A DNA stretch of 64,000 nt from Chloroherpetonaceae bacterium (GTDB lineage Bacteria > Bacteroidota > Chlorobiia > Chlorobiales > Thermochlorobacteraceae): positions 17,646 through 81,645 of the forward strand of contig JBDNCJ010000002.1 of the NCBI GenBank assembly GCA_046719715.1, given 5' to 3'. The notes below the pieces were generated by a model, which did not search any database, was not told the origin of the DNA, and saw only the letters and a program-made list of their open reading frames with translations. This document shows, one piece after another, positions 4,731 to 51,428 of this stretch (positions within the stretch are counted from its first letter, which is position 1; the number at the start of each line of letters is the position of its first letter). The position numbers and the translations under genes were made by a program.

Positions 4731-5507
4731 ATGCTGATGATGACTGAACCCTTATCTCAAACGATTACAGAGTTTGCAGTCAGCGGCATGCACTGTCAAG
4801 GGTGTGTTCAATCGGTTGAATCGGCTCTTTCATCAGTGGAAGGGGTTGAATCGGTAAAGGTTTCACTGTTTCCAGCGAAAGCGGTGCTGGTGCTTAAAGG
4901 TGATGTGCCGCTCTCGACACTCAATCGTGCGTTGAAATCCGTCGGCGATTACACGCTTTCGGAGTGGAAAGGCGATGCCGATTCTGCTTTGCCTTTTTCG
5001 CTTCCTGTTGTCAGTGCGCCGATGACTTCATCGGTTGCGCCAACTTCAAACGCCCCCCGTTCAAAAGCGTTTTGGCTTGATGCGCCGAAGTGGAAACGCG
5101 CCTCGTTTAACACGCTCAACTGCTTGATTGGCTGCTCGATTGGCGATTTTGGATTTATCATTTATGCGCAAAGTGTCGGCTTGGCGTGGTCAATGTGGGC
5201 GATTATGGGCGTCGCGATTCTGTGCGGACTGACGACTTCCGTCATGCTTGAAACCGTGATTCTCAAAGTGCGAGAAGGTTTTTCTTGGTCGCTTGCCTTG
5301 CAGACGGCTTTCTCAATGAGTTTCCTCTCGATGCTTGCGATGGAAATTTCCGAAAATGCAACAGATTACTTGCTCACGGGCGGAACCGTCATGCCGCACG
5401 AGCCTTTCTATTGGATTGCATTGGGAATCGCCCTCATCGCAGGATTCCTTGTGCCGCTTCCCTACAATTATTGGAAACTCAAAAAATTCAACAAGTCTTG
5501 CCACTGA
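4731..5507 (+). CDS. HMA (CopZ-like) domain fused to DUF4396-like membrane domain
   Basis: GMHCQGC heavy-metal-binding motif; TLNCLIGCSIGD and Met-rich TM helices (MSFLSMLAMEI). Confidence 0.85.
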   Translation: MLMMTEPLSQTITEFAVSGMHCQGCVQSVESALSSVEGVESVKVSLFPAKAVLVLKGDVPLSTLNRALKSVGDYTLSEWKGDADSALPFSLPVVSAPMTSSVAPTSNAPRSKAFWLDAPKWKRASFNTLNCLIGCSIGDFGFIIYAQSVGLAWSMWAIMGVAILCGLTTSVMLETVILKVREGFSWSLALQTAFSMSFLSMLAMEISENATDYLLTGGTVMPHEPFYWIALGIALIAGFLVPLPYNYWKLKKFNKSCH

Positions 5508-5733
5508 TGTTCCAGCCATACTTCCGACCGCGCCATTCAGAATGTGAACAGTTATTCTTTTGAATACAGCAAAGCGCATTGATTACTGAAGCCCGATAAT
5601 ACCTTCGCAAAATTTGCGACGCCAAAAGCCGAAACAGCCGATTTCCCCTGTAACGCCTTATTTCATCAGCACTTAAAATTAACGAAAAAAAAATCGAGCG
5701 TCGATTTTCCTTGCATCGCCTAAACGCCCGCCG

Positions 5734-5741
5734 TAACTTTG
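5734..5741 (+). promoter_or_regulatory. Putative -7 promoter element (TAnnTTTG)
   Basis: TAACTTTG with TTG 20 nt upstream, ahead of the 5827 gene. Confidence 0.4.
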
Positions 5742-5826
5742 TTGCGAACTTTGTTCCTTACCAATTTTCAAAAACAAAAGACCCGTTTTCCCACAACGAG
5801 AAAACGCGCCCGAAACAAAATGAAGT

Positions 5827-7245
5827 ATGAAGTATTCTTTTTCCATCACGCGCTTACCTTTCGCACTCTTGCTCCTGCTCACTCTCCACAGTTGCAAAGA
5901 GAACCCGATGAGGTCTATAGAACCTTCGTCTTCAGTTTCCCTCTCTGTTATCTCTGTGTTATCCAACGAGGTATGGCTGAAACTCTCATTCGCGGATAGT
6001 TTAGAGCAACCGCGCGATTTTAGGATTTTGAGAAACGACTCGATTCTCATTCGTGGGTCGCTCTTTAGCAAAGACACGTTGATTGCCGACCGTGCGTTTT
6101 CATCGCCGATATTTCAAGATGGAACGTCGATTCGCCCCAACCGCGACTATACTTTTTCAGCGGTGCGCCTCAATGAACAAACCGGCGTGATTCTCGATAG
6201 CAGCAAAACGCTCCGCACCCGAACCTTGGACACCACCAGCCATGATTATACATGGACAACCACCGCGCTCGGTGAAGGGTCAAGCATCTTGAGAGACGTG
6301 GCGATTGTTAGTGATACATGTGCATACGTTGTTGGACAAATGTTTTTTCGGGATTCCACAGGACAGATAAATCGGGATAAACCCTTTTGTTTCGCAACGT
6401 GGGATGGGCGCCAATGGAGAACATCTCAACTCAGAATATCTGATGGAACTAACACATCAATCGTTCCAGAGTTCAGAGGAATTTTTGCTTTTAGCCCTAC
6501 TGATGTTTGGGTTGCGGCTGTTGGCGTGTGGCGGGTTAATCCGACTACAGGACAAACGCAATCATTTAATGAACTATTGCGATTTAATCCTGCGTTTATC
6601 CTATCTCCTGAACAAAGCATTGAAAAACTTTGGGGAACGGCTCCAAATAATATCTATGGTGTAGGGTTAAAAGGGGCAATCGTTCATTACAACGGTCAGC
6701 GTTGGCAACGCATGGAAAGCGGGACGACGATTGACTTGCGAGATATTTACGGTACACCAGACGGGAAAGAAGTTTGGGCGGTCGGGCATGAAGGCGCGTT
6801 ACCTTTTGGTGTTGTTCTTCGTCTGGAAAATGGACGGTGGGTCAAGAAATTTGATACGTCTTTTCCCAACTATCCCGACGCCGAATTTGCTCAAGCGATT
6901 TGGATGGATAACCATCGCGCCATCTTTTCTAACAGCCGTGCAGTTTGGCAATCACTCGTTTACCCTATCAACAAATTCCCCGGCGCCTATCTCGACGATA
7001 ATAATTTTATAAACAACATCCGCTCGTTGCGCGGCTCTGCGCATAATGATATCACAGCCGTTGGCGACTTTAGTTCGATATGGCATTGGAACGGTTACAA
7101 CTGGCGTTTTTATTCCCAACTTCAACGCGAAAACGATCTTTACCTAGACGTGGCAGTAACCAGCCGTGTTATCGTATCTGTTGGAATACGAAGACTTCCT
7201 TCTTTTAGAAGCGAGGGCTTGATAACCATCGGGCGAAAACCCTAA
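5827..7245 (+). CDS. Hypothetical lipoprotein with beta-propeller-like repeats
   Basis: Lipobox LHS-C-KEN; repeats of the type LWGT..NNIY.VG..G.I.HYNG..W. Confidence 0.75.
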   Translation: MKYSFSITRLPFALLLLLTLHSCKENPMRSIEPSSSVSLSVISVLSNEVWLKLSFADSLEQPRDFRILRNDSILIRGSLFSKDTLIADRAFSSPIFQDGTSIRPNRDYTFSAVRLNEQTGVILDSSKTLRTRTLDTTSHDYTWTTTALGEGSSILRDVAIVSDTCAYVVGQMFFRDSTGQINRDKPFCFATWDGRQWRTSQLRISDGTNTSIVPEFRGIFAFSPTDVWVAAVGVWRVNPTTGQTQSFNELLRFNPAFILSPEQSIEKLWGTAPNNIYGVGLKGAIVHYNGQRWQRMESGTTIDLRDIYGTPDGKEVWAVGHEGALPFGVVLRLENGRWVKKFDTSFPNYPDAEFAQAIWMDNHRAIFSNSRAVWQSLVYPINKFPGAYLDDNNFINNIRSLRGSAHNDITAVGDFSSIWHWNGYNWRFYSQLQRENDLYLDVAVTSRVIVSVGIRRLPSFRSEGLITIGRKP

Positions 7246-21381: not shown

Positions 21382-23241
21382 ATGTTTTTTCGCCTTGCCT
21401 TTTTCGCGCTTTTCCTGCCTGCTCTTTGCAAAGCACAAACGCTTTCTAACACCTCGTTTGAACGCTTTCTAAACACTTATTTTTGGAAGGGTAATTATTT
21501 TTCCTCTCATCAACTCGGCGTTTGGACGCTTACGGCGAATAACAATTTTCAATCCACCCTTATCAATCTCAGCGAGCGAGCCTTGCGCGATGAAAACGAG
21601 TTTAGTTTTATTCTCTCCCGACCCTTCTATGCACGGTCTCAACTTCATTTAGAAGGCTCAAATTATTTTCTTTCCGATAATCGCAGTTTATTTCGTAACA
21701 GTGCGGTTTCTAATCGCGTCGCACTCGGCGTTTCTTCACGTCCTTCCGATTGGTCTGTTCTCGAAGCCAACGGCGGATTTAAAGCCGAGCGACAGGTCAA
21801 TCAGTTCAACTCAGGATTCATTTACGCACTTCGGGGAGAGTTACTCGGCTATCAATTTTCTAATTTTGAACTCTCCTCACGCGTGAATCTTTCACAAGAG
21901 TTTTTAGAGCCGCGCAGAAATAAAGATAAAGGCATTATTCTCTCTCTCAATCAAAAATATAATCGTGCGGAACTGCTCCTTTCAGGCGGCATGAGCGAGG
22001 AGCGGCGGGATTATTTTTCAAATGTTCTGGCTTCACAAGAGCCGACGACCGTCGTAGAACGGCGAATAGAGCAAAATTTTTATACGATTGACAGCCTTTC
22101 GTATCGAACTTTTTCCAACCTGACCACGCGGGCAAAAGTAGAACTTCGCAGGCGAGTGATTATTCGCGAAAATAGTCAACAGTTTTCCGACCTAACCAAT
22201 GCCGTTTATGACAATGAAATCGAGCAACTTCGCCTCTTTACCGACGCGGGCGTTATGTTTGAATCCTCATCGTTTCAAACGTTTGCAGGCGTTTTATTTC
22301 AGCAACAATCTGAAAGTTATCGTCCGATAAATGCGTTCTCTGGAAATCCAATCGCGATTACTAGGGAGCAGTTTCGCAATAATTCTTTTCAAGTCGCGAC
22401 GCTTTATTTGTCGTCAATTTGGAGGCACTTCAATGCTGTTGGAGATACCGTGCATTATTTTTTTGTTTCCGCACAGATGCGCGGATTTCGCTACGATACG
22501 CCCGACACCACGAACACCGACGACCGCGACGAAGTCAGTTACGCGCTTACGATTTCCGATAGCCTTCGCCTCAATCGTTATTTTGGATTGCGTCTTGTTG
22601 GTTCGTTTGCAACAACGAACAATGTTTTTATTTCCCGCGAGCGGAGCGCAAATAACACCAAGAACTATATTTTGAGATTTTCGCCGACGACGGTCTGGCG
22701 CGTCCCGAAAAAAATTGAGAGCGTCAATGAATTCGGCGTGCTGGCGAACTATACGGTTTATGATTTTGAAATCGGCTCGCAAACTCGAAGTTTTTCATTC
22801 CGACAATTTTCGTTTTTAGATTCTACGCAATTCTTTTTGAATGAAACCATTACTCTGAAATTTCTCTACGAACAGCGTCTTTACGAGCGCGGCGAGCTTT
22901 TTTGGAACAACTTTGCCGAGCGCCCACTCAGCCGATTCAACGACCGCTCTCTATCGTTTGAAATAGAGGCTCGATATGCGTCGCTTGTGAGTTCTTTTGG
23001 AATTAGAATTTTCGCGCGCAGTCAATCAAATTTTCAAACCCGTCCCAAAACTGATGAGGTTGAAATCATTGAATTACCGCTACCGAACTTGCTTTATATT
23101 GGTCCGACGGCGCGACTTTCATACCGCCCGTCGCAATCCGTTGAATTTGAAACAAGCGGCTGGTATCAGGTTGAACGATTGGGAAGCCAAACCGTTCAAA
23201 TTTTTCCGAACTTTCACCTTTCAGTCAAAGCCCTTTTTTGA
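21382..23241 (+). CDS. Hypothetical outer-membrane beta-barrel protein
   Basis: Signal peptide, aromatic-rich beta-strands, C-terminal Phe. Confidence 0.65.
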   Translation: MFFRLAFFALFLPALCKAQTLSNTSFERFLNTYFWKGNYFSSHQLGVWTLTANNNFQSTLINLSERALRDENEFSFILSRPFYARSQLHLEGSNYFLSDNRSLFRNSAVSNRVALGVSSRPSDWSVLEANGGFKAERQVNQFNSGFIYALRGELLGYQFSNFELSSRVNLSQEFLEPRRNKDKGIILSLNQKYNRAELLLSGGMSEERRDYFSNVLASQEPTTVVERRIEQNFYTIDSLSYRTFSNLTTRAKVELRRRVIIRENSQQFSDLTNAVYDNEIEQLRLFTDAGVMFESSSFQTFAGVLFQQQSESYRPINAFSGNPIAITREQFRNNSFQVATLYLSSIWRHFNAVGDTVHYFFVSAQMRGFRYDTPDTTNTDDRDEVSYALTISDSLRLNRYFGLRLVGSFATTNNVFISRERSANNTKNYILRFSPTTVWRVPKKIESVNEFGVLANYTVYDFEIGSQTRSFSFRQFSFLDSTQFFLNETITLKFLYEQRLYERGELFWNNFAERPLSRFNDRSLSFEIEARYASLVSSFGIRIFARSQSNFQTRPKTDEVEIIELPLPNLLYIGPTARLSYRPSQSVEFETSGWYQVERLGSQTVQIFPNFHLSVKALF

Positions 23242-24131
23242 TGAAAACTGACAAACTTATTTACAGCATTTTTCAGGAGTCGCCAGAAACGGCATTAGCA
23301 TTACTTGGCTACGACGAGGCACTTTCATCGCATTATACCTTCCAATCGATTGAGGTCAAAGAAAAGTCTTATCGAATTGATGGCGTACTTTTGCCTGATT
23401 CGCCCGACCTGCCGGTCATTATTTTGGAAGTTCAATTTCAGGCAGACGACTTTATTTACGAGCGCATTCTTTCGGAGACTCTGATTTTCAGAGCACAGAA
23501 TCGGCAGCTGCCGCAAACGCAAATGGTCGTGATGTTTGCTTCGCGCAGTCTGGATAAAGGTGCAGGCATGTTTGAGCCGCTCGTTTCATCGGGCGCAATT
23601 CGTCCGATTTACCTCAATGAAGTCCTGAACGACGAAATGCGCAATCTTGGACAGATGTTGCTTCAACTGACGGTAAAAAGGTCCAGTCTTTCTGCCGACC
23701 TTGAAATCGCAAAAGCATTCAAACAGCTTTTGGATAAGCCTGAAATGACTCAAACCCGCAGACGCTTTTTCTTGAACCTATTAATTAACTTATTTTTGGA
23801 AAAGCACGAACCTTTAACCTATCAGGAGCTGGAAACGATGATTGAAATGGAAGAAATTTTTGACTTCTCGAACAACCGTCTCGTGCACGACATTGCACGC
23901 CACACGATTGCGCCTGAAATTGCCAAAGAGATGGCAAAGGATATCGCAAGGGATATGGCAAAGGATATCGCAAGGGATATGGCAAAGGATATCGCAAAGG
24001 ATATGGCAATTGCGATTGCACTTGAAAGCAAGTTGGCAGAAATTCCAGCCCTCCGCCGATTTGGTTTAACGAATGAGCAGATTGCAGAGGCTTTGAAACT
24101 TCCTCTCGAAGACGTTCAGCGCGTTCAATGA
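23238..24131 (+). CDS. Rpn family (DUF2887, PD-(D/E)XK) nuclease
   Basis: MKTDKLIY...F.SIEVKE..YRIDG...LEVQFQ.D..IY.R motif; 4-aa repeat tract and HTH-like tail. Confidence 0.85.
   Translation: MMKTDKLIYSIFQESPETALALLGYDEALSSHYTFQSIEVKEKSYRIDGVLLPDSPDLPVIILEVQFQADDFIYERILSETLIFRAQNRQLPQTQMVVMFASRSLDKGAGMFEPLVSSGAIRPIYLNEVLNDEMRNLGQMLLQLTVKRSSLSADLEIAKAFKQLLDKPEMTQTRRRFFLNLLINLFLEKHEPLTYQELETMIEMEEIFDFSNNRLVHDIARHTIAPEIAKEMAKDIARDMAKDIARDMAKDIAKDMAIAIALESKLAEIPALRRFGLTNEQIAEALKLPLEDVQRVQ
23916..24011 (+). repeat. In-frame 12-nt tandem repeat (GATAT(C/G)GCAA(A/G)G), about 8 units
   Basis: Encodes EIAK/EMAK/DIAR/DMAK units in the Rpn C-terminal region. Confidence 0.9.
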
Positions 24132-40788: not shown

Positions 40789-40865
40789 TTTTTGTTCAGG
40801 CGTTTCAACTTAACCGTTTAAACCGATTTCAAGGTCAAGACGGTGGGTTTACAGACGTCGGTTCG

Positions 40866-40873
40866 TAACTTTG
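40866..40873 (+). promoter_or_regulatory. Putative -7 promoter element
   Basis: TAACTTTG 35 nt upstream of ATG 40909. Confidence 0.45.
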
Positions 40874-40908
40874 CACGATTCTTTTCAAGTTTAATTCCGA
40901 AGTTATCT

Positions 40909-43632
40909 ATGCGCGCTCTTCAAAAAACACTGCTCTGCTCGCTCTTCATTTTCTCTGCTGCTCCGCTCTTTGCCCAAGTTGATTTTCGTGAAGAAACCAT
41001 CTATTTCCTTTTGACCGCTCGATTCAACGACGGTGACTCGACGAATAATCGTCCGACCGAGTGGTGCTCATACCCTCGTCCGCAAATTACCGACCCACGC
41101 GACGTCACTTGGCGCGGCGACTTCAAAGGCTTGGTTCAGAAGTTGGACTACATCAAAGATTTAGGCTTCACGGCTATTTGGATTACGCCGATTGTTCAGA
41201 ACCGAAGTCCGCTCGATTATCACGGCTATCACGCTTGGGATTTCAATGTCGTCGACCCGCGTTTGGAATCACCGGGCTACACCTTTCAAACCCTCATTGA
41301 CTCCGCTCACGCCAAAGGCATTAAAGTGATTTTAGACGTGGTGCTTAATCACGCGGGACGCTTTGGAATTAAACATCGTGCGGAAATCAAATACAACACC
41401 GACCCGACCAAGCCTTGGGGACAAGACCGCTTCGGCAACCCGCTTCAACCGAATCCGAATTGGCAATACGACGGCATGACGCCGAATCCCGACGACGATA
41501 AAATTTGGTCGCGCGCCAATCTTGCGCCGATGCCGCCGCCCTACAATCAAAACCTTGCCGCATTTAACTTTCCAAGCAAAGAAAATTACGTCGATACCAG
41601 CGACCCGAATTGGTATCATCATTCAGGCAACGGCTTTGCACAAGGCTACGACGATACCGTCAATCTCTACTACCGCGCCCTTGCAGGCGACACACCCGAC
41701 CTCAACACCGAGAGCGATACGGTTCGACAATATCTCGTTAATGCTTACAATCGCTTCATCGATATGGGAATCGATGGCATGCGCCTCGACGCCGTCAAGC
41801 ACATCAGCAAGGGAAGTTTGATTTACTTCATTGACCAATTCAAAGCCCGCAATCCGAACTTGTTCATTTTCGGCGAAGTGGCGCAAAAGCGGCATGAGTT
41901 GCATCAAGTTCAAGAAATCAATCCGCACTGGTATACTTGGCGCGGAGCCGTTGGCGCATCGCCGTCGTCGCGCATGTCCGTTTTGGATTTTTATGCGATG
42001 GCAACCTTTCATCTTTTCGAGCGCGGCGAATCCATTTCAGGCGTAACGGCGGCGGCGCGCTACGACCACCTTTACTCGAACCCCTCCGAACTCGTTACCT
42101 TCTTGGATAATCACGACTTCGGACCGAATAATGATTGGAATCGTCGATTCGGAAACACGCCGCAAAATCTCGCCGCGTGCATGAATTTCATGTTCACTTG
42201 GCGCGGTATTCCGTGCGTGTATTACGGAACGGAAATGCAGTTCAAACGTGGGGCTTTCGCCGATATTCAAAGCGCAAGCGACATTGAACGCTCGATTGAT
42301 AACACCGGACGCGCTTACTATGGCGACGTGATGCATCAAGCCCCGTCGCACCCTGTTTATCAGCACCTTAAAAAACTCAACGCGATTCGTCGCGCTGTGC
42401 CCGCGTTGCAAAAAGGCTCGTGGCAATGGGGCGGGAATCCTGGTCCGAACGGTGTCGGCTACATTCGACGCTTCGGCACAAGCGAAGTCGTTGTTGGCTT
42501 GGCGAAAGATGGAAACGCAACATTCAATTTCACTGGCGTAACCAATGGCGTTTATCGCGACGCGGTAACGGGCGCGGAAGTTACCGTAACCAACGGCACG
42601 CTTTCGTTTACAGTCGCACCCAGTTCGGCAGGCATTTATGTCTTGAATGGACCGGGACTCATCGGCGCGTTGGGTGCGGGATACTTTCAGACTTCCGCGA
42701 ATCCCGGAAGTGGTGGCGGCGGCAGTGGTGCAAGCATTGTTACTTTCAATCCGAACCCCGCACAAGCCGGCGCCCCACTCATGATTACTTATCAAGGCTT
42801 TTTGAGTTCGCAATCACAAGTCAATCTCTATTGGGGCATTGATAATTGGCAGAACATTACCACAACGCCAATGACACGGCTCAACGATTCGACTTGGCGC
42901 GTTACCGTAACCGTGCCTTCAACGGCACAACAACGCTTCGTTTGTGTCTTCAATAACGGTCAGGGACTTTGGGATAACAACAACAGCGCAGATTATCAAG
43001 TCAGCGTAACGGGCGGCTCGTCAGGAGGTAATGGCATCACCGTTTATTTCAAACCGCCAAACACTTGGAGTGGCACACCGCGCCTTTACTTTTATGAAAC
43101 TTCTCCAAGCGTGCCCGAGCCCACTTGGGATACATCACCAACTATGACCGCTCACGGCAATGGATGGTTCAGACACACGATTGCTAGCGTCAATAGCGTG
43201 CGCGTCATTTTCCGCGACAATGGCTCAAATCAAATTCCTGCCTCGATGCAACCCGGCTTTTTGAGAACGCGCGACGGCTGGTTCGACGGCACAACGCAAA
43301 TCTGGTCGGATAATCCGCCGCTCTCTTTCCAAGAGCCTTCAAAGCCACAAGACTTTTCGCTTTTGCAGAACTATCCAAATCCATTTAATCCAACAACAGT
43401 TATCACTTACACCTTGCCAACACCCAGCGCCGTTACGCTGACACTCTTTGATGTGCTTGGCAGAACCGTCGCCACGCTTGTTGACGTCAAACAATACGCA
43501 GGCATACACCATTACAACTTGAATACCTCTCTCTACAACCTATCAAGCGGCGTTTATTTCTACCGTTTGCAGGCAAGCGGCGCGAATGGACAATCGTTTG
43601 TTGAAACCAAGAAGATGTTGCTGACAAAGTAG
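40909..43632 (+). CDS. Secreted GH13 alpha-amylase with starch-binding modules and T9SS-type C-terminal domain
   Basis: DVVLNH, GMRLDAVKH, GEV, FLDNHD catalytic regions; WDNN and YFKPP..W CBM-like modules; QNYPNPFNP...GVYFYRL...KKMLL tail. Confidence 0.9.
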   Translation: MRALQKTLLCSLFIFSAAPLFAQVDFREETIYFLLTARFNDGDSTNNRPTEWCSYPRPQITDPRDVTWRGDFKGLVQKLDYIKDLGFTAIWITPIVQNRSPLDYHGYHAWDFNVVDPRLESPGYTFQTLIDSAHAKGIKVILDVVLNHAGRFGIKHRAEIKYNTDPTKPWGQDRFGNPLQPNPNWQYDGMTPNPDDDKIWSRANLAPMPPPYNQNLAAFNFPSKENYVDTSDPNWYHHSGNGFAQGYDDTVNLYYRALAGDTPDLNTESDTVRQYLVNAYNRFIDMGIDGMRLDAVKHISKGSLIYFIDQFKARNPNLFIFGEVAQKRHELHQVQEINPHWYTWRGAVGASPSSRMSVLDFYAMATFHLFERGESISGVTAAARYDHLYSNPSELVTFLDNHDFGPNNDWNRRFGNTPQNLAACMNFMFTWRGIPCVYYGTEMQFKRGAFADIQSASDIERSIDNTGRAYYGDVMHQAPSHPVYQHLKKLNAIRRAVPALQKGSWQWGGNPGPNGVGYIRRFGTSEVVVGLAKDGNATFNFTGVTNGVYRDAVTGAEVTVTNGTLSFTVAPSSAGIYVLNGPGLIGALGAGYFQTSANPGSGGGGSGASIVTFNPNPAQAGAPLMITYQGFLSSQSQVNLYWGIDNWQNITTTPMTRLNDSTWRVTVTVPSTAQQRFVCVFNNGQGLWDNNNSADYQVSVTGGSSGGNGITVYFKPPNTWSGTPRLYFYETSPSVPEPTWDTSPTMTAHGNGWFRHTIASVNSVRVIFRDNGSNQIPASMQPGFLRTRDGWFDGTTQIWSDNPPLSFQEPSKPQDFSLLQNYPNPFNPTTVITYTLPTPSAVTLTLFDVLGRTVATLVDVKQYAGIHHYNLNTSLYNLSSGVYFYRLQASGANGQSFVETKKMLLTK

Positions 43633-43869: not shown

Positions 43870-45201
43870 TTAAGTGTCGAAGAAACGCTTTATTTTTTCA
43901 AACGAGGGCTGTTTTCTGATGAGCGATTGAATTAAATCGAGCATCACGTTTGCGCCTTGTGCAAAGTAAATCGGACGCGACGAAATGATGTTGGTGTAAT
44001 AGACGGCGGGAATGCCGAGTTCTTTGACGTAACTATCCAGCGAAGTTGTGCCGACGACCAAGTTGGGTTTGTATTTCAGGACGGCGCGGCGGTCTTCTTC
44101 GAGATATTTGCGATAGCGCAGTTCTGTGCCGAGCATCGTGAGCAGGTTGTGGTCGTCGTCGCCCAGTTGGGTATGTGCAATTGACGTTGAGGCATATGGC
44201 ACATTAAGCCCTGCCTCTAAAAGCAATCGAACGAGCGGAAACTCGTTGCCTTCGTAGCCCGCCACAATCACCGTTCCCTTCATTTTCTTAGCATCGATGA
44301 CGGCTTTAATTTTTGTTTTCTCTTCTTGGGCAACTTGCTCGACCGTTTTTTCATCAAGCCCTAAGGCGTCGCCAATTTGTTTAATCCATCTGTAAGTAGA
44401 ATTCACGCCGACCGGATTTCCCGCCACGACTTTCACGCCGCGCTCGCGATAAAAATGCTCGACGCGCTCATAAAACGGATGAAGCACCACCGCGACGCCC
44501 ACATTTCCGGCTTCTTTGTAATCGTCTAACTCTTGCGAGGGCAAGGTCAAGACGGATTCGACGCCGATTCGCTCTAAGACTTGTCCAATCATCATGGCGT
44601 CAAGCGGAAAAATTTCGCCGATAATCGCGACGGATTTTTTGCGCGTTTCGCTTGGGATTTGAGCGAAGCGTTTAAGCAAGGCTTCAACGGCGATGTCTTT
44701 GGCTTCGGGGTGCGATTTGATGAGATAAGCCGGAATGCGCACCAGCACGACTTCGGCGTTTCCGACTTTCTTGGGCAAAAGTTCTTCAGCAATTCCAGCA
44801 GTCTCGGCAACGCACAGACTCACAACGGGAATCAGTCGAATGGCTTTATCTTTGGCAATTTCTTCGAGCGTGTGGCGAATGTCGTGAATCATGGTGCCGC
44901 TTGAAAGTTGTTGCGACATCAGTTCAGGAGAGACGATAGATTTTTTTGCGGCGTAAAAATGCGTTACGAAGGTTAAGCCATACATACAGCCTTTGTCGGT
45001 TGCCATGCAGACTTGTGCGCCGTCAATGCGCGTAATGACCCGCAATCCACCGAAGGCAGGGCACATGGTTTGTGGGTGCAGATTCAGCTCTTCTTCCTTT
45101 TCGCCTTTATGTTGCTCGTGAAGGATGTTGAAGAGGTGATTAAAATCGTTGCTCCCGTCACTTTGAGGCACAGTCGGATTCGGTGTTGATGTGGTGTTCA
45201 T
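43870..45201 (-). CDS. bchY: Chlorophyllide a reductase subunit Y
   Basis: HPQTMCPAFGGLRV, GCMYGLTFVTHFYAAKKS, LCVAETAG, GYEGNE, YYTNIISSRP. Confidence 0.9.
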   Translation of the reverse strand: MNTTSTPNPTVPQSDGSNDFNHLFNILHEQHKGEKEEELNLHPQTMCPAFGGLRVITRIDGAQVCMATDKGCMYGLTFVTHFYAAKKSIVSPELMSQQLSSGTMIHDIRHTLEEIAKDKAIRLIPVVSLCVAETAGIAEELLPKKVGNAEVVLVRIPAYLIKSHPEAKDIAVEALLKRFAQIPSETRKKSVAIIGEIFPLDAMMIGQVLERIGVESVLTLPSQELDDYKEAGNVGVAVVLHPFYERVEHFYRERGVKVVAGNPVGVNSTYRWIKQIGDALGLDEKTVEQVAQEEKTKIKAVIDAKKMKGTVIVAGYEGNEFPLVRLLLEAGLNVPYASTSIAHTQLGDDDHNLLTMLGTELRYRKYLEEDRRAVLKYKPNLVVGTTSLDSYVKELGIPAVYYTNIISSRPIYFAQGANVMLDLIQSLIRKQPSFEKIKRFFDT

Positions 45202-45266
45202 TTTTCACTCCGTTTAGGTTCTGCTTGCATGATGCAAAAAGTTTATCGGAGCGGCAAATCATATCG

Positions 45267-45605
45267 TCAGTAGAGCAGATGTTTTTTTGATGCCTCTCGC
45301 CAGCGTGCTTGGCTTTCGTATTTGACGAAATGAATTTTCAAATCGGCTTGGCTCGGATAGTCCACAAAGAAAATTTTCACCTGCGCTTGACTTTCATACT
45401 TGGTGAAAAACCATAGCCCCTCGTTGCCTCTCGCTTGACTTTCATATTTGACTTTGAAGACGAGGAGGTCGGCTTGACTGGGGTAGTCGACCACGAAGAC
45501 TTTGACGTCGGCTTGGCTGGGATAGTTGCACGAGAAAACTTTTTGTGCCGACACGCTTTGCGTAAGTAGTAGCAAGCCAATCAAGATGAGGAAAGTTTTT
45601 ATCAT
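45267..45605 (-). CDS. Small exported repeat protein (DUF6150-like)
   Basis: Signal peptide; repeated (V)DY(P/E)SQAD(V/L)K(V/I)F units. Confidence 0.7.
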   Translation of the reverse strand: MIKTFLILIGLLLLTQSVSAQKVFSCNYPSQADVKVFVVDYPSQADLLVFKVKYESQARGNEGLWFFTKYESQAQVKIFFVDYPSQADLKIHFVKYESQARWREASKKHLLY

Positions 45606-45626
45606 CGTCGTTTTTGTTCAACACGG

Positions 45627-46421
45627 TTATGTTCTTGACACGCTTTGCACATTCGCCAGTGGGAGTTGAAGTTTCTCGGCGATTTGCTCATCGCTTAACC
45701 CCAACTCTCTCAAAATCGGCACTGCTGCAAGTTTGCCTTTTTGCTCACCCTTTTGCTCGCCTTCCAGCCTGCCTTTTTGCTCGCCTTCCAGCCTACCTTC
45801 TGCTTTGCCTTTGGCAAAGACTTCCTTGTAAAACGGCGTGTCCTTCAATAACGCTTCCTCTATTTCCAACATCGCTTTCACCTCCGCTTCGGTTAGGTTC
45901 TTGTAGGCTAAAATGTTCAAGAGTAATTCCATCTGAACCTTGTCGGCTCTCGCCGCAATCTTCCGCGCCAATGCTCCTAGCTCTTTCTTCGGCACAATCA
46001 ACATCTCTAACAAACTCACCGCAACTGACTCCATCGGCGGCAACTCGTCCAAATATATCCGTTTGACTTGCTTCAATGCAAGCAAGTCTCGGTATCCCTC
46101 AAGGTCTTTTTGTTCCGCACTCCGCGAAGAATAAATCACGACAGCGTTCCACTGACGCGTCGGATATTGTTTGAGATAAAGAAAAATTTCAGCGAAGAAT
46201 CGCGCGTAGAATTGTTCGTCGCGTTGAAATTGCGCTTCCACAAAGTATGTCGTGTCGTCGCTGTCAGGAATGAAAAGTCCATCAATGCGAAACGCAACTT
46301 CTTTGAGCTCAACCGATTTGAATGTGTAGTGCAACGCGTCGTCGGGAGTCCTGCCAATGAGCGCGAAAAAACCTTGCGGAAAATGCTGCAAAATCAGGTA
46401 TATCAACTTGTCAGTGTGCAT
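45627..46421 (-). CDS. Rpn family (DUF2887) nuclease, tandem copy C
   Basis: MHTDKLIY, FKSVELKE..FRIDG, FVEAQFQRD..FY.RFFAE, EGEQKG repeats, HTH-like tail. Confidence 0.88.
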   Translation of the reverse strand: MHTDKLIYLILQHFPQGFFALIGRTPDDALHYTFKSVELKEVAFRIDGLFIPDSDDTTYFVEAQFQRDEQFYARFFAEIFLYLKQYPTRQWNAVVIYSSRSAEQKDLEGYRDLLALKQVKRIYLDELPPMESVAVSLLEMLIVPKKELGALARKIAARADKVQMELLLNILAYKNLTEAEVKAMLEIEEALLKDTPFYKEVFAKGKAEGRLEGEQKGRLEGEQKGEQKGKLAAVPILRELGLSDEQIAEKLQLPLANVQSVSRT

Positions 46422-46436
46422 ATCTGCTCGGCAGGC

Positions 46437-47243
46437 TTACCCCTTCGGCACGCTTTGCACATTCGCCAGTGGGAGTTGAAGTTTCTCGGCGATTTGCTCA
46501 TCGCTTAACCCCAACTCTCTCAAAATCGGCACTGCTGCAAGTTTGCCTTTTTGCTCGCCTTCTTGTCTGCCTTTTTGCTCACCTTCTTGTCTGCCTTTTT
46601 GCTCGCCTTCTTGCTTACCTTCTGCTTTGCCTTTGGCAAAGACTTCCTTGTAAAACGGCGTGTCCTTCAATAACGCTTCCTCTATTTCCAACATCGCTTT
46701 CACCTCCGCTTCGGTTAGGTTCTTGTAGGCTAAAATGTTCAAGAGTAATTCCATCTGAACCTTGTCGGCTCTCGCCGCAATCTTCCGCGCCAATGCTCCT
46801 AGCTCTTTCTTCGGCACAATCAACATCTCTAACAAACTCACCGCAACTGACTCCATCGGCGGCAACTCGTCCAAATATATCCGTTTGACTTGCTTCAATG
46901 CAAGCAAGTCTCGGTATCCCTCAAGGTCTTTTTGTTCCGCACTCCGCGAAGAATAAATCACGACAGCGTTCCACTGACGCGTCGGATATTGTTTGAGATA
47001 AAGAAAAATTTCAGCGAAGAATCGCGCGTAGAATTGTTCGTCGCGTTGAAATTGCGCTTCCACAAAGTATGTCGTGTCGTCGCTGTCAGGAATGAAAAGT
47101 CCATCAATGCGAAACGCAACTTCTTTGAGCTCAACCGATTTGAATGTGTAGTGCAACGCGTCGTCGGGAGTCCTGCCAATGAGCGCGAAAAAACCTTGCG
47201 GAAAATGCTGCAAAATCAGGTATATCAACTTGTCAGTGTGCAT
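46437..47243 (-). CDS. Rpn family (DUF2887) nuclease, tandem copy B
   Basis: Body identical in protein sequence to copy C, tail identical to copy A. Confidence 0.88.
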   Translation of the reverse strand: MHTDKLIYLILQHFPQGFFALIGRTPDDALHYTFKSVELKEVAFRIDGLFIPDSDDTTYFVEAQFQRDEQFYARFFAEIFLYLKQYPTRQWNAVVIYSSRSAEQKDLEGYRDLLALKQVKRIYLDELPPMESVAVSLLEMLIVPKKELGALARKIAARADKVQMELLLNILAYKNLTEAEVKAMLEIEEALLKDTPFYKEVFAKGKAEGKQEGEQKGRQEGEQKGRQEGEQKGKLAAVPILRELGLSDEQIAEKLQLPLANVQSVPKG

Positions 47244-47258
47244 ATCTGCTCGGCAGGC

Positions 47259-48053
47259 TTACCCCTTCGGCACGCTTTGCACATTCGCCAGTGGGAGTTG
47301 AAGTTTCTCGGCGATTTGCTCATCGCTTAACCCCAACTCTCTCAAAATCGGCACTGCTGCAAGTTTGCCTTTTTGCTCGCCTTCTTGTCTGCCTTTTTGC
47401 TCACCTTCTTGTCTGCCTTTTTGCTCGCCTTTCTGCTCGCCTTTGGCAAAGACTTCCTTGTAGAACGGCGTATCCTTCAACAGTTCTTCTTCAATCCCTA
47501 ACATCGCTTTTACCTCCGCTTCGGTTATGTTCTTGTAGGCTAAAATGTTCAAGAGTAATTCCATCTGAACCTTGTCGGCTCTCGCCGCAATCTTCCGCGC
47601 CAATGCGCCTACCTCTTCCTTCGGCACAATCAAGATCTGAAACAACGCCACCGCAACGGAATCCGTCGGCGGCAACTCGTCCAAATATATCCGTTTCACT
47701 TGCTCCAATGCAAGAAATTCCCGATAGGCTTCAATATCCCGTTGCTCCACACTTCGCGAGGGATATATCACCACCGCTTTCCATTTGCGCGTCGGATACT
47801 GTTTGAGATAAAGAAAAATTTCAGCAAAAAATCGCGCGTAAAATTGCTCATCGCGTTGAAACTGAACTTCCACGAAGTAAGTGACGTCGTCGGTGTCGGG
47901 AATGAAAAGCCCGTCAATGCGGAAAGAGACATCTTTGAGTTCAACCGATTTGAATTGGTAGCGCACGGCATCGTTGGGATTTCTGCCAATCAGCAAAAAG
48001 AACGCCTGCGGCAAGAGTTGCAGGAGCAGATAAATGAGTTTATCGGTGTGCAT
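47259..48053 (-). CDS. Rpn family (DUF2887) nuclease, tandem copy A
   Basis: Same motifs with a diverged nuclease body. Confidence 0.88.
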   Translation of the reverse strand: MHTDKLIYLLLQLLPQAFFLLIGRNPNDAVRYQFKSVELKDVSFRIDGLFIPDTDDVTYFVEVQFQRDEQFYARFFAEIFLYLKQYPTRKWKAVVIYPSRSVEQRDIEAYREFLALEQVKRIYLDELPPTDSVAVALFQILIVPKEEVGALARKIAARADKVQMELLLNILAYKNITEAEVKAMLGIEEELLKDTPFYKEVFAKGEQKGEQKGRQEGEQKGRQEGEQKGKLAAVPILRELGLSDEQIAEKLQLPLANVQSVPKG

Positions 48054-48077
48054 TGCATTGCCGGACTTAGCGATTTG

Positions 48078-48833
48078 TTACAACCTTACTTCGATTCCGT
48101 GATGTTCAAGATAGCGTTTGGCTTCGATAATGCTGTATTGGCGATAGTGAAAGATGGACGCGGCAAGTGCGGCATCGGCGGCGCCTTCGGTGAAGGCGTC
48201 TTTGAGATGCGTTAAATTTCCCGCGCCGCCAGAGGCGATGACGGGAACGGAAACCGACGTAGAAATCAGTCGGAGGCTTTCCAAGTCGTAGCCGGATTGT
48301 GTGCCGTCTTTATCCATGCTGGTGAGCAGAATTTCGCCTGCGCCGAGCTCGACGACTTTTTGTGCCCATTCAAGCGCGTCCAATTCTGTTGGCATTTTGC
48401 CGGAATGCGTAAAGACTTTGTAGCGATTGCCCACGCGCTTGATGTCAATGGCGACGACGATGGCTTGCACGCCGAAGCGTTCAGCGAGTTGAGTAATGAG
48501 GGTTGGCGTTTGGACGGCAGCCGTGTTGAGCGAGACTTTGTCGGCGCCATGCAGAAACGCTTGTCGTGCATCGTCCAACGTGCGGATTCCGCCTCCGACC
48601 GTGAGCGGAATGAAGACTTCTTCGGAGACTTTTTGGACTTCTTCGAGCGTGGTTCGGCGCGATTCAATTGAAGCGGAGATGTCGAGAAAGACGAGTTCGT
48701 CGGCGAGTTCGGCGTTGTAGAATCGGGCTTGTTCCAAAATAGAGCCTGCATCTTTAAGGGATTCAAAATTGACGCCTTTCACGACGCGCCCGTCTTTGAC
48801 GTCGAGGCAAGGAATAATGCGTTTGGCGAGCAT
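48078..48833 (-). CDS. hisF: Imidazole glycerol phosphate synthase cyclase subunit
   Basis: [42 protein letters not shown]. Confidence 0.97.
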
Positions 48834-48836
48834 GGA

Positions 48837-51428
48837 TTAGTAGAACTTAATCATCATATCGCCTTTTTTGGCAGCGAGCGGTTCGCGTTGTTTATCGCTT
48901 TGTTCTTCTTCGTCGGAGTATGGCGGAGCGGCGTCGGTCGGCTCTAATCCGCGATAACGGCGTTCTGCTTCTTCGGACGCGATGGGATCGAGGGCGTGGT
49001 CGATAAGGTCGTCCATTTCGCTAAAATAGTTGAACGTCATTCCTTCTAAGGCGTCTTTGTTGGTTTCAAGGATGTCCAAAACATCGTTGCGATTTTTTTC
49101 AGGCAGTAAAATTTCAACAATCCCTGCGCGTTTTGCGGCAAGCACTTTTTCTTTGATACCGCCGACGGGAAGCACATGCCCGCGCAACGTGATTTCGCCC
49201 GTCATGGCGATTTTGCCTTTCACGTTGCGCTGAGTGAATATCGAGGCGAGCGACGTTAAAATCGTAACGCCCGCTGATGGTCCATCTTTTGGAATCGCGC
49301 CTTGTGGAATGTGCAAATGCACGTCCCAGAATCGAAACGCTTCATCGGGAATGCGGAAGTAATCCGCACACGATTTCAAATACGACAATGCGGCTTGCGC
49401 CGATTCTTTCATCACTTCTCCGAGTTGCCCTGTGAGAATCAAGCGTCCGCTTCCTTTGGTTACGGTGGATTCGATGAAGAGAATATCTCCGCCGGAAGGC
49501 GTCCAAGCTAATCCGACCGCGACGCCCGGAATGAGTACAGGCTCGTCGACTTCGGGGAAGAATTTTTCCAATCCCAAGTATTTTTTGAGGGCATCGACGT
49601 TTACTTGAATCGTCTCTATTGGCTTGGTTTCGTCTTCGTCGAGGCGAAGGGCGATATCCATCGCGATGCTTCGACAGATGCTGGCGAGTTCTCTATCCAG
49701 ATTTCTCACGCCGGCTTCTCGCGTGTAGGCGTTGATGACTTTGGAGACGGTTTCGTCAGTGATTTCAACTTGACCTTTGAGAATCCCGTGCTCTTCCATT
49801 TGTCTTGGAATCAGGTATTCTTTTGCGATGTGCATTTTCTCGAACTCGGTGTAGCCGTTAATCGTGATGACTTCCATTCGGTCGCGAAGGGCGTGCGGAA
49901 TGGTGTCGAGCGTGTTTGCGGTTGCGATAAACATCACGCGCGAGAGGTCGTAAGGAATCTCGAGATAGTGGTCGCTGAACGTGTGATTTTGAGACGGGTC
50001 TAAGACTTCCAGCAAGGCGGAACTTGGGTCGCCGCGGTGGTCGTTGCCGAGTTTATCGATTTCATCGAGCATGAACACGGGGTCGCTGGTTCCGGCTTTT
50101 TTCAAACCTTGAATAATGCGACCGGGCATGGCGCCGATGTAAGTTTTGCGGTGTCCGCGAATTTCCGCCTCATCTCTGACGCCGCCGAGTGAAATTCTGA
50201 CGAAACTTCTACCTAAGGCTTTTGCAATTGATTTTCCAAGCGATGTTTTGCCAACACCGGGCGGACCGACGAAGCACAAAATTGGGGCTTTCATGTTCGC
50301 CTTCAATTTCAAGACGGCAAGGTATTCTAAAATTCGTTTCTTGACTTTTTCAAGTCCGTAGTGGTCGGCGTTCAAAATGCGCTCGGCTTCGCGCAGGTTG
50401 ATTTTGGCGTTGGTGTAATTGCCCCAAGGAAGCGCAAGCACGGTATCGAGGTAATTGCGCGTTACGCCGTAGTCGGGCGAGACTTGCGGAATGCGCGAGA
50501 GTTTATCGATTTCTTTGTCGATATGAGCGCGAAGGTCGTCGGGCAGTTGTTTTTTGGCAAGCAAGTCACGGAGTTTCATTATGTCTTGCATTTGCCCGTC
50601 GTATTCGCCGAGTTCGGATTGAATGGTTTTGAGTTGTTGGCGCAGGAAAAATTCGCGCTGGGCTTTATCCATATCCATCTTCACTTTGGTTTGAATTTGA
50701 TTGGAAAGCTCCAGCACTTGAATTTCTTTCGTCAGAAGGTCGATGAGTTTTTCGGCGCGCACGTCAATGGAATCGAGTGAGAGCAGTTCTTGCTTTTCGC
50801 TCGGCGTTACATTGAGATTTGAGGAAATGAAGTGAATTAAAAACGTCGGATTGTCGATGTTTTGAATCGCGTAACTGGCTTCATTCGGGATATTTTGTGA
50901 GAGCTCGACGACTTTTGACGCCAGTTGTTTGATGCTTCGCGAGTAGGCGTCAAGTTGGGAAGCGGCTTTGAGTTCATCGGCGATAATGGACGTTTCCGCG
51001 ACGAAGAACGGCTCGGTTTGTATGAATTTTTCCAAACGTACACGCTTAACGCCTTGCACAATCAGGTTTGCGCTTCCATCGGGAATGCGCAGAATTTTAA
51101 GCACGCGCCCGACCGTCCCCAGTCGGAACAAGTCGTCTTCGGAAGGCTCATCAATGTTGGAGTCGGCTTGCGTTACAAAGGCGATGAATTTTTTGTCGCC
51201 CAGCGCGTCAAGAAGCGCGATGGATTTTTTTCGCCCGATGCTGACGGGCATCACGATATCCGGAAAAAGAACGGTGTTTCTCAACGGCAACACGGGCAAC
51301 TGCGAATCCATCGGCAGGTCAAACTGCACCCCTGCGCCCGACGCGGCTTGCGGCAACGTCTTTGCAAGCTCATCGAGCAAGCCCGATTGAGTGGTTTCAA
51401 AAAATACGTCTCTAAAATCGTCTCTCAT
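48837..51428 (-). CDS. lon: ATP-dependent Lon protease
   Basis: LPLRN N-domain, GPPGVGKTS, PKDGPSAG catalytic Ser, GGIKEK. Confidence 0.97.
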   Translation of the reverse strand: MRDDFRDVFFETTQSGLLDELAKTLPQAASGAGVQFDLPMDSQLPVLPLRNTVLFPDIVMPVSIGRKKSIALLDALGDKKFIAFVTQADSNIDEPSEDDLFRLGTVGRVLKILRIPDGSANLIVQGVKRVRLEKFIQTEPFFVAETSIIADELKAASQLDAYSRSIKQLASKVVELSQNIPNEASYAIQNIDNPTFLIHFISSNLNVTPSEKQELLSLDSIDVRAEKLIDLLTKEIQVLELSNQIQTKVKMDMDKAQREFFLRQQLKTIQSELGEYDGQMQDIMKLRDLLAKKQLPDDLRAHIDKEIDKLSRIPQVSPDYGVTRNYLDTVLALPWGNYTNAKINLREAERILNADHYGLEKVKKRILEYLAVLKLKANMKAPILCFVGPPGVGKTSLGKSIAKALGRSFVRISLGGVRDEAEIRGHRKTYIGAMPGRIIQGLKKAGTSDPVFMLDEIDKLGNDHRGDPSSALLEVLDPSQNHTFSDHYLEIPYDLSRVMFIATANTLDTIPHALRDRMEVITINGYTEFEKMHIAKEYLIPRQMEEHGILKGQVEITDETVSKVINAYTREAGVRNLDRELASICRSIAMDIALRLDEDETKPIETIQVNVDALKKYLGLEKFFPEVDEPVLIPGVAVGLAWTPSGGDILFIESTVTKGSGRLILTGQLGEVMKESAQAALSYLKSCADYFRIPDEAFRFWDVHLHIPQGAIPKDGPSAGVTILTSLASIFTQRNVKGKIAMTGEITLRGHVLPVGGIKEKVLAAKRAGIVEILLPEKNRNDVLDILETNKDALEGMTFNYFSEMDDLIDHALDPIASEEAERRYRGLEPTDAAPPYSDEEEQSDKQREPLAAKKGDMMIKFY

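Follow-up and report, generated by a model that had tools for sequence, protein, structure and literature searches.

How can a gene family acquire, at one stroke, an additional gene and an additional repeat unit? The question is raised by three adjacent rpn genes in the draft genome of a Chloroherpetonaceae bacterium (Bacteroidota; Chlorobiales; Thermochlorobacteraceae; assembly GCA_046719715.1). These genes lie on contig JBDNCJ010000002.1 within a stretch of 64,000 nucleotides (positions 17,646 to 81,645 of the forward strand), hereafter the window, to which all positions given without a contig name refer. They are read from the minus strand and are named A (47259-48053, 264 residues, the first gene of the array), B (46437-47243, 268 residues) and C (45627-46421, 264 residues, the last gene). 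A reading made from the sequence alone had described three head-to-tail genes with a common 15-nt spacer, and the open reading frames and the spacer coordinates bear this out. A and B are separated by 15 nt at 47244-47258, B and C by the same 15 letters at 46422-46436 (ATCTGCTCGGCAGGC on the plus strand), and the two spacers are 822 nt apart. In A, a PD-(D/E)XK body is followed by a 78-nt repeat tract (47370-47447) and a 36-residue tail (47262-47369). The corresponding parts of B are a 90-nt tract (46548-46637) and a tail at 46440-46547. C has its own tract of RLEG units (45738-45815) and its own final three residues, SRT. Taken as a whole, the locus is probably best explained as a DUF2887/TIGR01784 Rpn array lodged in the spacer between hisF and a DUF6150 gene, in which B arose by a recent tandem duplication joined within the repeat tract; our confidence in this explanation is moderate. 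The recombination mechanism and the presence of all three copies on one chromosome are what we infer from the assembled sequence.

The composition of B carries this explanation. In a three-way nucleotide alignment, B does not differ from C at any position between the upstream spacer and the end of the KEVFAKGKAEG codons, nor from A between EQKG-RQEG and the stop codon (100% identity in both parts). The sequence-only reading had given B the body of C through KEVFAKGKAEG with the repeat pattern and the ending (QSVPKG) of A, and had given C a tract of RLEG units and the ending QSVSRT; both descriptions agree with the alignment. The tract and tail of B equal those of A over 173 nt, synonymous sites included, and the identical block runs on through the spacer. 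String equality delimits two exact copies of 816 nt. One (45794-46609) comprises the body of C, the spacer, the tail of B and the A-type tract of B. The other (46616-47431) comprises the body of B, the spacer, the tail of A and the tract of A. Such letter-for-letter identity over 816 nt is far beyond chance. The two copies are only 6 nt apart, and the length of the block is close to the 822-nt period.

Only six letters, 46610-46615, separate one exact copy from the other. They belong to a junction unit encoding KQEG (46605-46616; AAGCAAGAAGGC on the gene strand), which matches neither A nor C exactly and makes B a chimera of a C-type body, one private unit, and an A-type tract and tail. On the plus strand, the sequence is A-like through 46609, C-like at 46610, private to B at 46611, A-like at 46612 and 46615, and C-like from 46616 on. 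The joint stands beside a unit common to A and C, GAGCAAAAAGGC, within the 12-nt repeat tract. Nucleotide alignment of the three copies, which had been proposed as the way to find the breakpoint, thus places it within 6 nt inside that tract. Private differences scattered throughout B, which would have spoken against a single exchange, were not encountered; they are limited to one 12-nt unit. The KQEG codons of the junction unit recur in a paralogue divided between contigs C68 and C12 of the assembly. As for the presumed parents, the bodies of A and C are 83% identical, and the two genes share an exact tail block of 108 nt (45639-45746 and 47271-47378) and an exact body block of 78 nt (45897-45974 and 47529-47606). 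The tract of B counts eight glycines, versus seven in A and seven in C, so that B has one repeat unit more.

An 816-nt block that fills an 822-nt period and leaves one novel joint argues for tandem duplication or unequal exchange rather than for a conversion patch. In the assembled sequence, features expected of a tandem duplication are observed: identical head-to-tail copies of period length, with a single novel joint at a place of parental homology. In the mechanism that may be envisaged, an older A-C pair would have undergone a very recent tandem duplication of 822 bp. An unequal exchange, either by crossover or by slipped or template-switched replication, would have joined the 12-nt tracts of C and A. 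The product would be gene B, with the body of C, the patchwork junction unit, and the tract and tail of A.

The assignment of these genes to the Rpn family is well supported. A, B and C match Pfam DUF2887 with E values around 1e-55 (5.2e-55 for A). They also match TIGR01784, whose NCBIfam name is 'Rpn family recombination-promoting nuclease/putative transposase', with 95.5, 91.8 and 88.7 bits, respectively, for a curated cutoff of 52.1; these matches span residues 3-260/264 and model positions 2-272 of 273. Residues D47, E62 and Q64 are invariant in all 16 aligned paralogues, which provides the nuclease core with an aspartate and an E-X-Q form of motif III. For DUF2887, Laganeckas et al. (2010; PMC3045609) described PD-(D/E)XK proteins in which motif III takes the form EXQ; a long helix connects this domain to a C-terminal helix-turn-helix that they compared with the one of resolvase. 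The invariant E62 and Q64 correspond to the EXQ motif. In the AlphaFold2 model of B (mean predicted local distance difference test, pLDDT, 81.8), the N-terminal domain is mixed alpha/beta, the whole repeat tract lies in one helix (residues 196-236), and three short helices make up the tail. A Foldseek comparison with the PDB gave no match at E ≤0.001; its top rows were PD-(D/E)XK nucleases (BstEII, EndoMS, Nt.BspD6I, MspJI and BamHI), all weak, with E values of 0.013-0.06. The tail modules produced only sub-threshold matches to Yae1_N, Sigma70_r4_2 and HTH_23, and PADLOC returned only its 'putative invertase' model for B (E 0.0036) and nothing for A. Two sequence matches in the PDB were considered and set aside as likenesses at the level of motifs. 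HP0242-type proteins are the best match of full-length B (E 1.2e-4). Topoisomerase V is the best match of a profile of 18 C-terminal modules (E 1.3e-8), a score summed from five weak helix-hairpin-helix-like stretches.

What a change in repeat number might mean can be envisaged from Escherichia coli. There, according to the available text of the original study and of its commentary, rpn genes encode a toxic nuclease, RpnL, and an antitoxin, RpnS, made from an internal start (Zhong et al., 2023; PMC10400941; PMC10400984). It is the long first helix of RpnS that contains the repeats and forms the dimer interface (PMC10400941; PMC10400984), and RpnS blocks RpnL only when both have an equal repeat number (PMC10400941). 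In the present genome, all 17 paralogue open reading frames that were parsed carry a tract of glycine-phased four-residue units (EQKG, KLEG, LQQG and others), 6-46 residues long; an 18th paralogue, on contig C59, was mis-parsed and its longer tract is visible in alignments. Hypervariable four-residue repeats are thus found in a long helix of the C-terminal region; they are what PMC10400941 calls, for Rpn proteins, the 'hypervariable four amino acid repeat'. A candidate internal start of B, recognised from sequence only, comprises the ATG of Met184 (46692-46694) and a GGAGGT at 46702-46707 on the minus strand, and would yield a putative RpnS-like protein of 85 residues. Equivalent candidates on the same strand of A (47502-47517) and C (45870-45885) would yield 81 residues each. 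Met184 is invariant in 16 of 16 aligned paralogues. A GGAG stands 7-9 nt before the conserved in-frame ATG in 19 of the 20 paralogue sequences, and no such site precedes the main start codons; genome-wide, glutamate is encoded by 32617 GAA and 12008 GAG codons (a crude count over long open reading frames). The tract begins about 19-22 residues after Met184, a distance near that of 8-20 residues given for E. coli Rpn (PMC10400941).

The homodimer predicted for the small product of B, here RpnS-B, reached an ipSAE of 0.66 versus a best value of 0.00 in three controls, although a like dimer, that of RpnA-S, has been solved, so that the pass could partly reflect model memory (PMC10400941). Of 30 proteins solved as pairs, 20 attained the mark used for calling a dimer, as did 1 of the 23 proteins solved as single chains. 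Contacts agree between the runs to at least 97%, and the partners have a pLDDT of at least 88. Among the predicted contacts of lowest error are glycines facing each other in register (22-22, 26-26, 34-34, 38-38, 42-42, 46-46 and 50-50). The prediction supports self-binding of RpnS-B without showing it. By analogy with E. coli, each gene of the array would then give rise to a toxic full-length nuclease (RpnL) and to a small antitoxin (RpnS, with 81, 85 and 81 residues for A, B and C), which would pair through the repeat helix only at equal repeat numbers. With eight glycines versus seven, B would represent a new, self-insulated toxin/antitoxin specificity. A pair of helices packed glycine on glycine in register would explain, on the predicted model, why one extra unit, that is one helical turn, creates a mismatch. 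A and C do not differ in repeat number, and their tails are alike save for the last three residues; they may therefore cross-protect. Expression of RpnS, toxicity and a defence function at this locus are presumed from the E. coli genes.

Several observations weigh against the explanation proposed here. Over 8 nt, the joint is a patchwork in which A-like, C-like, private, A-like and C-like letters succeed each other, and no register of A against C yields B without at least one extra change. The sequence-only reading had proposed an unequal crossover within the repeats of an ancestral A-C pair. The position of the joint inside the tract and the near equality of block and period are in keeping with that proposal; the patchy joint and its private change mean that the event was not a clean single crossover between the present-day A and C. 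Possible sources of the patchiness are patchy mismatch repair of a heteroduplex, different parent tracts, or later slippage. As for the family, no Rpn entry of the PDB was matched by sequence, either with full-length B or with the profile of 18 C-terminal modules, and three C-terminal modules searched at E values up to 10 gave no match to Pfam DUF4351 (PF14261) in the tail. None of the six runs listed is an RNA run, and the caveat on model memory bears on the dimer. Furthermore, no other adjacent pair of full-length rpn genes occurs among the matches listed for 25 related genomes. Finally, X1 and X3, two of the public sequencing runs discussed below, have contigs that run unbroken where the tract of C should branch off, and the assembly itself leaves some latitude as to the number of copies.

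Whether the third copy is real is indeed the first matter to settle among the alternatives. The genome is a draft of 133 contigs, and 154 of 187 contig-end overlaps with another contig are exactly 127 nt, which indicates a de Bruijn assembly of short reads with a final k of 127. No k-mer of this length spans the 816-nt repeat. The assembly graph forms a loop (body, joint, tract, tail, spacer and body again) in which the use of the joint needs at least one further pass; the number of passes is the choice of the assembler. The contig is thus evidence for the joint in the reads, but not for any particular number of copies. One may therefore imagine that two-gene haplotypes, A-C and A-B*, were threaded in series by the assembler, B* being a C allele that had received an A-type tract by conversion. 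In that case the joint would be genuine, a product of gene conversion, and each chromosome would carry two genes. That several rpn paralogues are broken at contig ends (C68/C12, C107/C6, C41 and C51) and that relatives have yielded no other tandem pair would suit this scenario. Additional information comes from Logan contigs (k=31) of four public runs, X1 to X4, of which X1, X2 and X3, all from hot springs, belong to one study, compared over one period of the array (46480-47330). X4 consists of two short tract pieces only and X3 has a depth of 3-6, so that both leave parts uncovered; such contigs also drop variants. The joint is bridged with 0 differences by contigs of three of the four runs (X1, X2 and X3). 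In the same three runs, another contig passes unbroken from the C-type body through the spacer into a KG-type gene end. All three read A rather than G at 47270 (equivalent to 46448), which changes a proline to a serine and ...QSVPKG to ...QSVSKG; the runs are thus not plain copies of the assembly and the joint is not private to it. This substitution, a strain-level polymorphism, also makes the end of A and B two letters more like the end of C. The public contigs confirm the chimeric joint and the link from the KG-type end to the spacer, but not phase or copy number. Contigs of X2 break exactly where the tract of C would branch (46556/46527 and 46616/46645), whereas those of X1 and X3 do not. 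The difference hints that the locus may be polymorphic and that the tract of C may be scarce or missing in part of the samples, as would be expected of two-gene haplotypes. Against a threading of haplotypes, an allele B* assembled at k=127 would give words that join the A-type tract, via the shared 108-nt tail, to the SRT end, but no such word is present in the genome, and beyond the locus itself C107 is the only contig with a match to the array at ≥88% identity. In all of X1 to X3, what follows the KG-type end is without exception the spacer and a C-type body, with no break in the contig. Moreover, assemblers would normally be expected to collapse the bubble formed by two haplotypes rather than to concatenate it, and the identity of B to A over tract and tail, silent positions included, does not stop at the gene end. 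An artefactual third copy is accordingly considered rather unlikely, though it is the alternative that deserves most attention, and three genes on one chromosome are judged fairly probable. A perfect direct repeat of 816 nt is expected to gain and lose copies by ordinary homologous recombination, and two- and three-gene forms may coexist. Estimates of copy number from per-contig word depth (joint, body, tail and a 78-nt word shared with A) depended on the assumptions of the ratio models, and word depth of this sort does not measure copy number; they were discarded, whichever way they pointed. A metagenome scan with the spacer-plus-start pattern gave 0 exact matches. The 28 metagenome loci found with the DUF6150 protein are 54-76% identical, hence not of this genus and of no use for copy number.

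Two further scenarios accept three genes and account for them differently. In one, the array is long-standing and the 816-nt identity is a recent gene-conversion patch between gene junctions. Gene conversion is active across this family, as is seen from exact blocks shared by otherwise diverged paralogues: A and C keep their exact tail and body blocks in spite of the divergence of their bodies, and dispersed paralogues have exact runs of up to 338 nt (contigs C55 and C43) and 302 nt (C123 and C75). A conversion tract has, however, no reason to be exactly one period long. The block observed here fills the period, with both ends at the same point of the tract and 6 nt between the copies, and B retains no private difference outside the junction unit. 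This scenario therefore appears very improbable. In the other, the genes are remnants of mobile elements, putative transposases as the family name still has it, and the array results from repeated insertion at one site. The family is multicopy: this genome has about 18 full-length members, and every other genome of the genus searched gives 8-17 matches. The array is, moreover, an insertion relative to one of those genomes (see below). Yet the identical 15-nt spacers lie within the exact duplicated block, as is predicted by duplication rather than by separate insertions. A scan of the array for direct repeats returned only the families of gene copies themselves (inverted repeats were not scanned), a result consistent with what Zhong et al. 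state of rpn genes generally; in the available text these authors argue against transposition, having found neither terminal repeats nor target duplications (PMC10400941). Repeated insertion is thus even less credible than a conversion patch. The tandem duplication that produced B remains the reading we favour.

Does the repeat tract act more generally as a recombination hinge, as the sequence-only reading had suggested? Some ends of exact blocks speak for it. Three recent blocks of exact identity end inside the tract: at the joint of B; at the end of the 108-nt block common to the tails of A and C, at 45746; and at the place where the 100% identity between A and A', a second A-like gene (contigs C107 and C6), gives way to a tail that has diverged more. 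Identities of body and tail are also discordant in several pairs (83 vs 100% for A and C, 96 vs 75% for the copies of contigs C55 and C43, and 95 vs 80% for those of C123 and C75). On the other hand, a maximum chi-square breakpoint scan was run over 78 pairs from 13 genes with 200 permutations, after exclusion of B, of the copies on contigs C68, C41 and C59, and of all partial copies. It found 47 of the 78 pairs significant (0 of 200 permutations), with change-points at alignment columns 250-449 (29 pairs), 600-649 (1 pair) and 650-691 (17 pairs), the boundary between body and tail being at column 636. The change-points thus cluster in mid-body and 20-55 nt into the tail, and not at the tract; variation in rate may account for part of them. 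The hinge is partly supported: the block ends favour it and the change-points oppose it. The associated idea that the repeats reshuffle nuclease bodies against C-terminal modules does not apply to B. Since the tails of A and C share an identical 108-nt block, B gains no new tail module and obtains only a different repeat tract. It may tentatively be imagined, as a speculation that we regard as unlikely, that the family is driven more generally by adjacent rpn paralogues whose dodecamer tracts exchange out of register. Such a general engine would add, in one step, a gene and a repeat number, hence a new pairing specificity, while arrays flicker between two, three and more copies; the exchange might even be stimulated by the Rpn nuclease. 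Such flickering in populations is hinted at by the differences between X1 and X3 on the one side and X2 on the other.

The array belongs to a large family. Besides the full-length copies mentioned above, fragments are found in this genome; five genomes of the same genus have matches, as have 10 of the 26 genomes searched, this one included, and 0 of 13 genomes of the more distant families f2 and f4. The closest outside homologue of A is a single gene at an unrelated locus of another genome (G003, contig C210), with 74% identity by tblastn. On contig C43 of the present assembly (14865-15953), about 20 nt separate a full-length rpn gene from a downstream, free-standing copy of its C-terminal module, which has 70 residues and one repeat unit fewer. 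A similar pair of a full gene and a tail fragment occurs on contig C87 of G003 (5078-5923 and 6282-6563). The ends of contigs C107 and C6 are the two ends of A'; each side has at least 127 nt in common with A, and the tail is different. The end of contig C68 and the start of contig C12 overlap by exactly 127 nt and belong together, and contigs C41 and C51 also mark breaks of the assembly in rpn genes. A second, divergent member of the family is found in the window itself, where an open reading frame at 23175-24128 on the plus strand (contig C46, 40820-41773) encodes a distant Rpn-like protein of 318 residues (phmmer E 1.3e-23 versus A) with glycine-free four-residue repeats (AKDI and ARDM units) and a tail like that of the other paralogues.

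The surroundings of the array had been described as a housekeeping run, lon-hisF-[rpn x3]-DUF6150-bchY. The flanking genes are as named: lon (48837-51428), hisF (48078-48833; Pfam His_biosynth, E 4.1e-82) immediately upstream of the array, the DUF6150 gene (45267-45605; assigned by Pfam) immediately downstream, and bchY (43870-45201; TIGR02015, E 1.6e-161). With the three rpn genes they all lie on the minus strand (43870-51428), separated by gaps of 3, 24, 15, 15, 21 and 65 nt. As a conserved run, this arrangement does not hold, and the array is an insertion. In G005, a genome of the same genus, hisF is followed after about 33 nt by the DUF6150 gene, with no rpn gene between them, which indicates that the array was inserted into a short hisF-DUF6150 spacer. 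The left edge of the insertion is the 24-nt gap between the stop of hisF and the start of A (48054-48077); the right edge is the 21-nt gap between the stop of C and the start of the DUF6150 gene (45606-45626). Among four same-genus genomes compared, lon-hisF is conserved in G001, G002 and G004, where unrelated genes follow. In 12 related loci, bchY never adjoins hisF, DUF6150 or rpn, so that the comparison of the hisF-bchY interval among relatives, which had been recommended, meets no conserved interval. A scan of 45200-48900 for minus-strand promoter and terminator sites found none, counts being not above those of shuffled sequences. It neither shows nor excludes co-transcription of the array with hisF. 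As no terminator-like site was seen on the minus strand over this region, the full-length rpn products may rely on read-through from hisF. Farther away, at 40843-43632 on the plus strand, lies an open reading frame for a protein of 929 residues resembling alpha-amylases; its C-terminus, as recognised by eye, resembles a Por/type IX secretion system sorting signal.

The interest of the locus resides in the nature of the family. Rpn proteins form a recently recognised and very widespread toxin-antitoxin phage defence, in which the number of four-residue repeats determines specificity. Provided that the third copy exists, the array offers a natural snapshot of one event that changed a repeat number and made a gene, so recently that every letter outside one 12-nt unit is unchanged. 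The Rpn architecture, with a candidate internal start, a repeat helix and a downstream small copy, is at the same time extended to a hot-spring phototroph lineage in which about 18 full-length copies occur per genome. The mechanisms of repeat expansion and gene duplication were left open in the Discussion of Zhong et al., as far as the available text goes (PMC10400941). The idea of a general engine, if true, would answer that question. No later paper on duplication joints inside such tracts was found in our literature searches; Fig. S1B of the Supplementary Information of PMC10400941 may already show joints of this kind.

It remains to compare the locus with known systems. The glycine repeats of Yae1/Lto1 (deca-GX3) and of FliH (GxxxG) have pairing roles. 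The tracts studied here gave sub-threshold matches to the Pfam Yae1_N model (E 0.0039 and 4.1e-05) and to FliH models, and the predicted RpnS-B dimer packs glycine on glycine in register. All these matches are below curated cutoffs and the surrounding domains are not homologous, so that the likeness is one of motifs. A parallel in mechanism is offered by the hsdS switch between EcoR124I and EcoR124II, where the repeat gain reportedly arose by unequal crossover, that is by misaligned exchange within the repeat. In that system, a 12-nt, four-residue repeat likewise lies in a helical spacer of a DNA-acting defence protein, and the gain of one 12-bp TAEL repeat changes specificity (cited in the available text of PMC10400941). 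Unlike the array, it involves a change within a single gene, which alters the spacing of the DNA target; here neighbouring paralogues would have misaligned, with duplication of a whole gene, and the presumed effect is on the pairing of proteins. DUF2887/YhgA-like proteins share with A, B and C the N-terminal PD-(D/E)XK domain with its EXQ motif III, the long connecting helix and the C-terminal helix-turn-helix, whereas the repeat tract, internal starts and arrays are not described in the available part of that work (PMC3045609).

The nearest relatives are RpnA-E of E. coli and the plasmid-borne RpnP2, described in the portion of PMC10400941 on which we rely here. They have the same PD-(D/E)XK body and TIGR01784 membership, and a long helix with a hypervariable four-residue (12-nt) repeat. 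A little before the repeats they also have a conserved in-frame internal start, with its ribosome-binding site, to which the candidate starts of A, B and C would correspond. They are likewise multicopy and patchy, and occur as bare-gene insertions without terminal repeats, their arrays arising by tandem direct duplication (PMC10400941). Small downstream copies of the rpnSs (ypaA) type exist as well and can fuse with an N-terminal domain (PMC10400941; PMC10400984); the counterpart here is the free-standing module of contig C43, shorter by one repeat unit than its full-length neighbour. The differences are that the body is filed here as DUF2887, that the 36-residue tail resembles helix-turn-helix or helix-hairpin-helix motifs and has no DUF4351 match, that the repeats are strictly glycine-phased (GX3), and that the host is a bacteriochlorophyll-containing organism of hot-spring metagenomes. 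Tandem-duplication arrays, variation in repeat number and fusions of N-terminal domains with small copies have already been published, and no new kind of system is present at this locus. What the locus adds to the E. coli picture is a duplication joint that can be located to within 6 nt in the dodecamer tract; a new gene and a new repeat number would thus have come from a single misaligned exchange.

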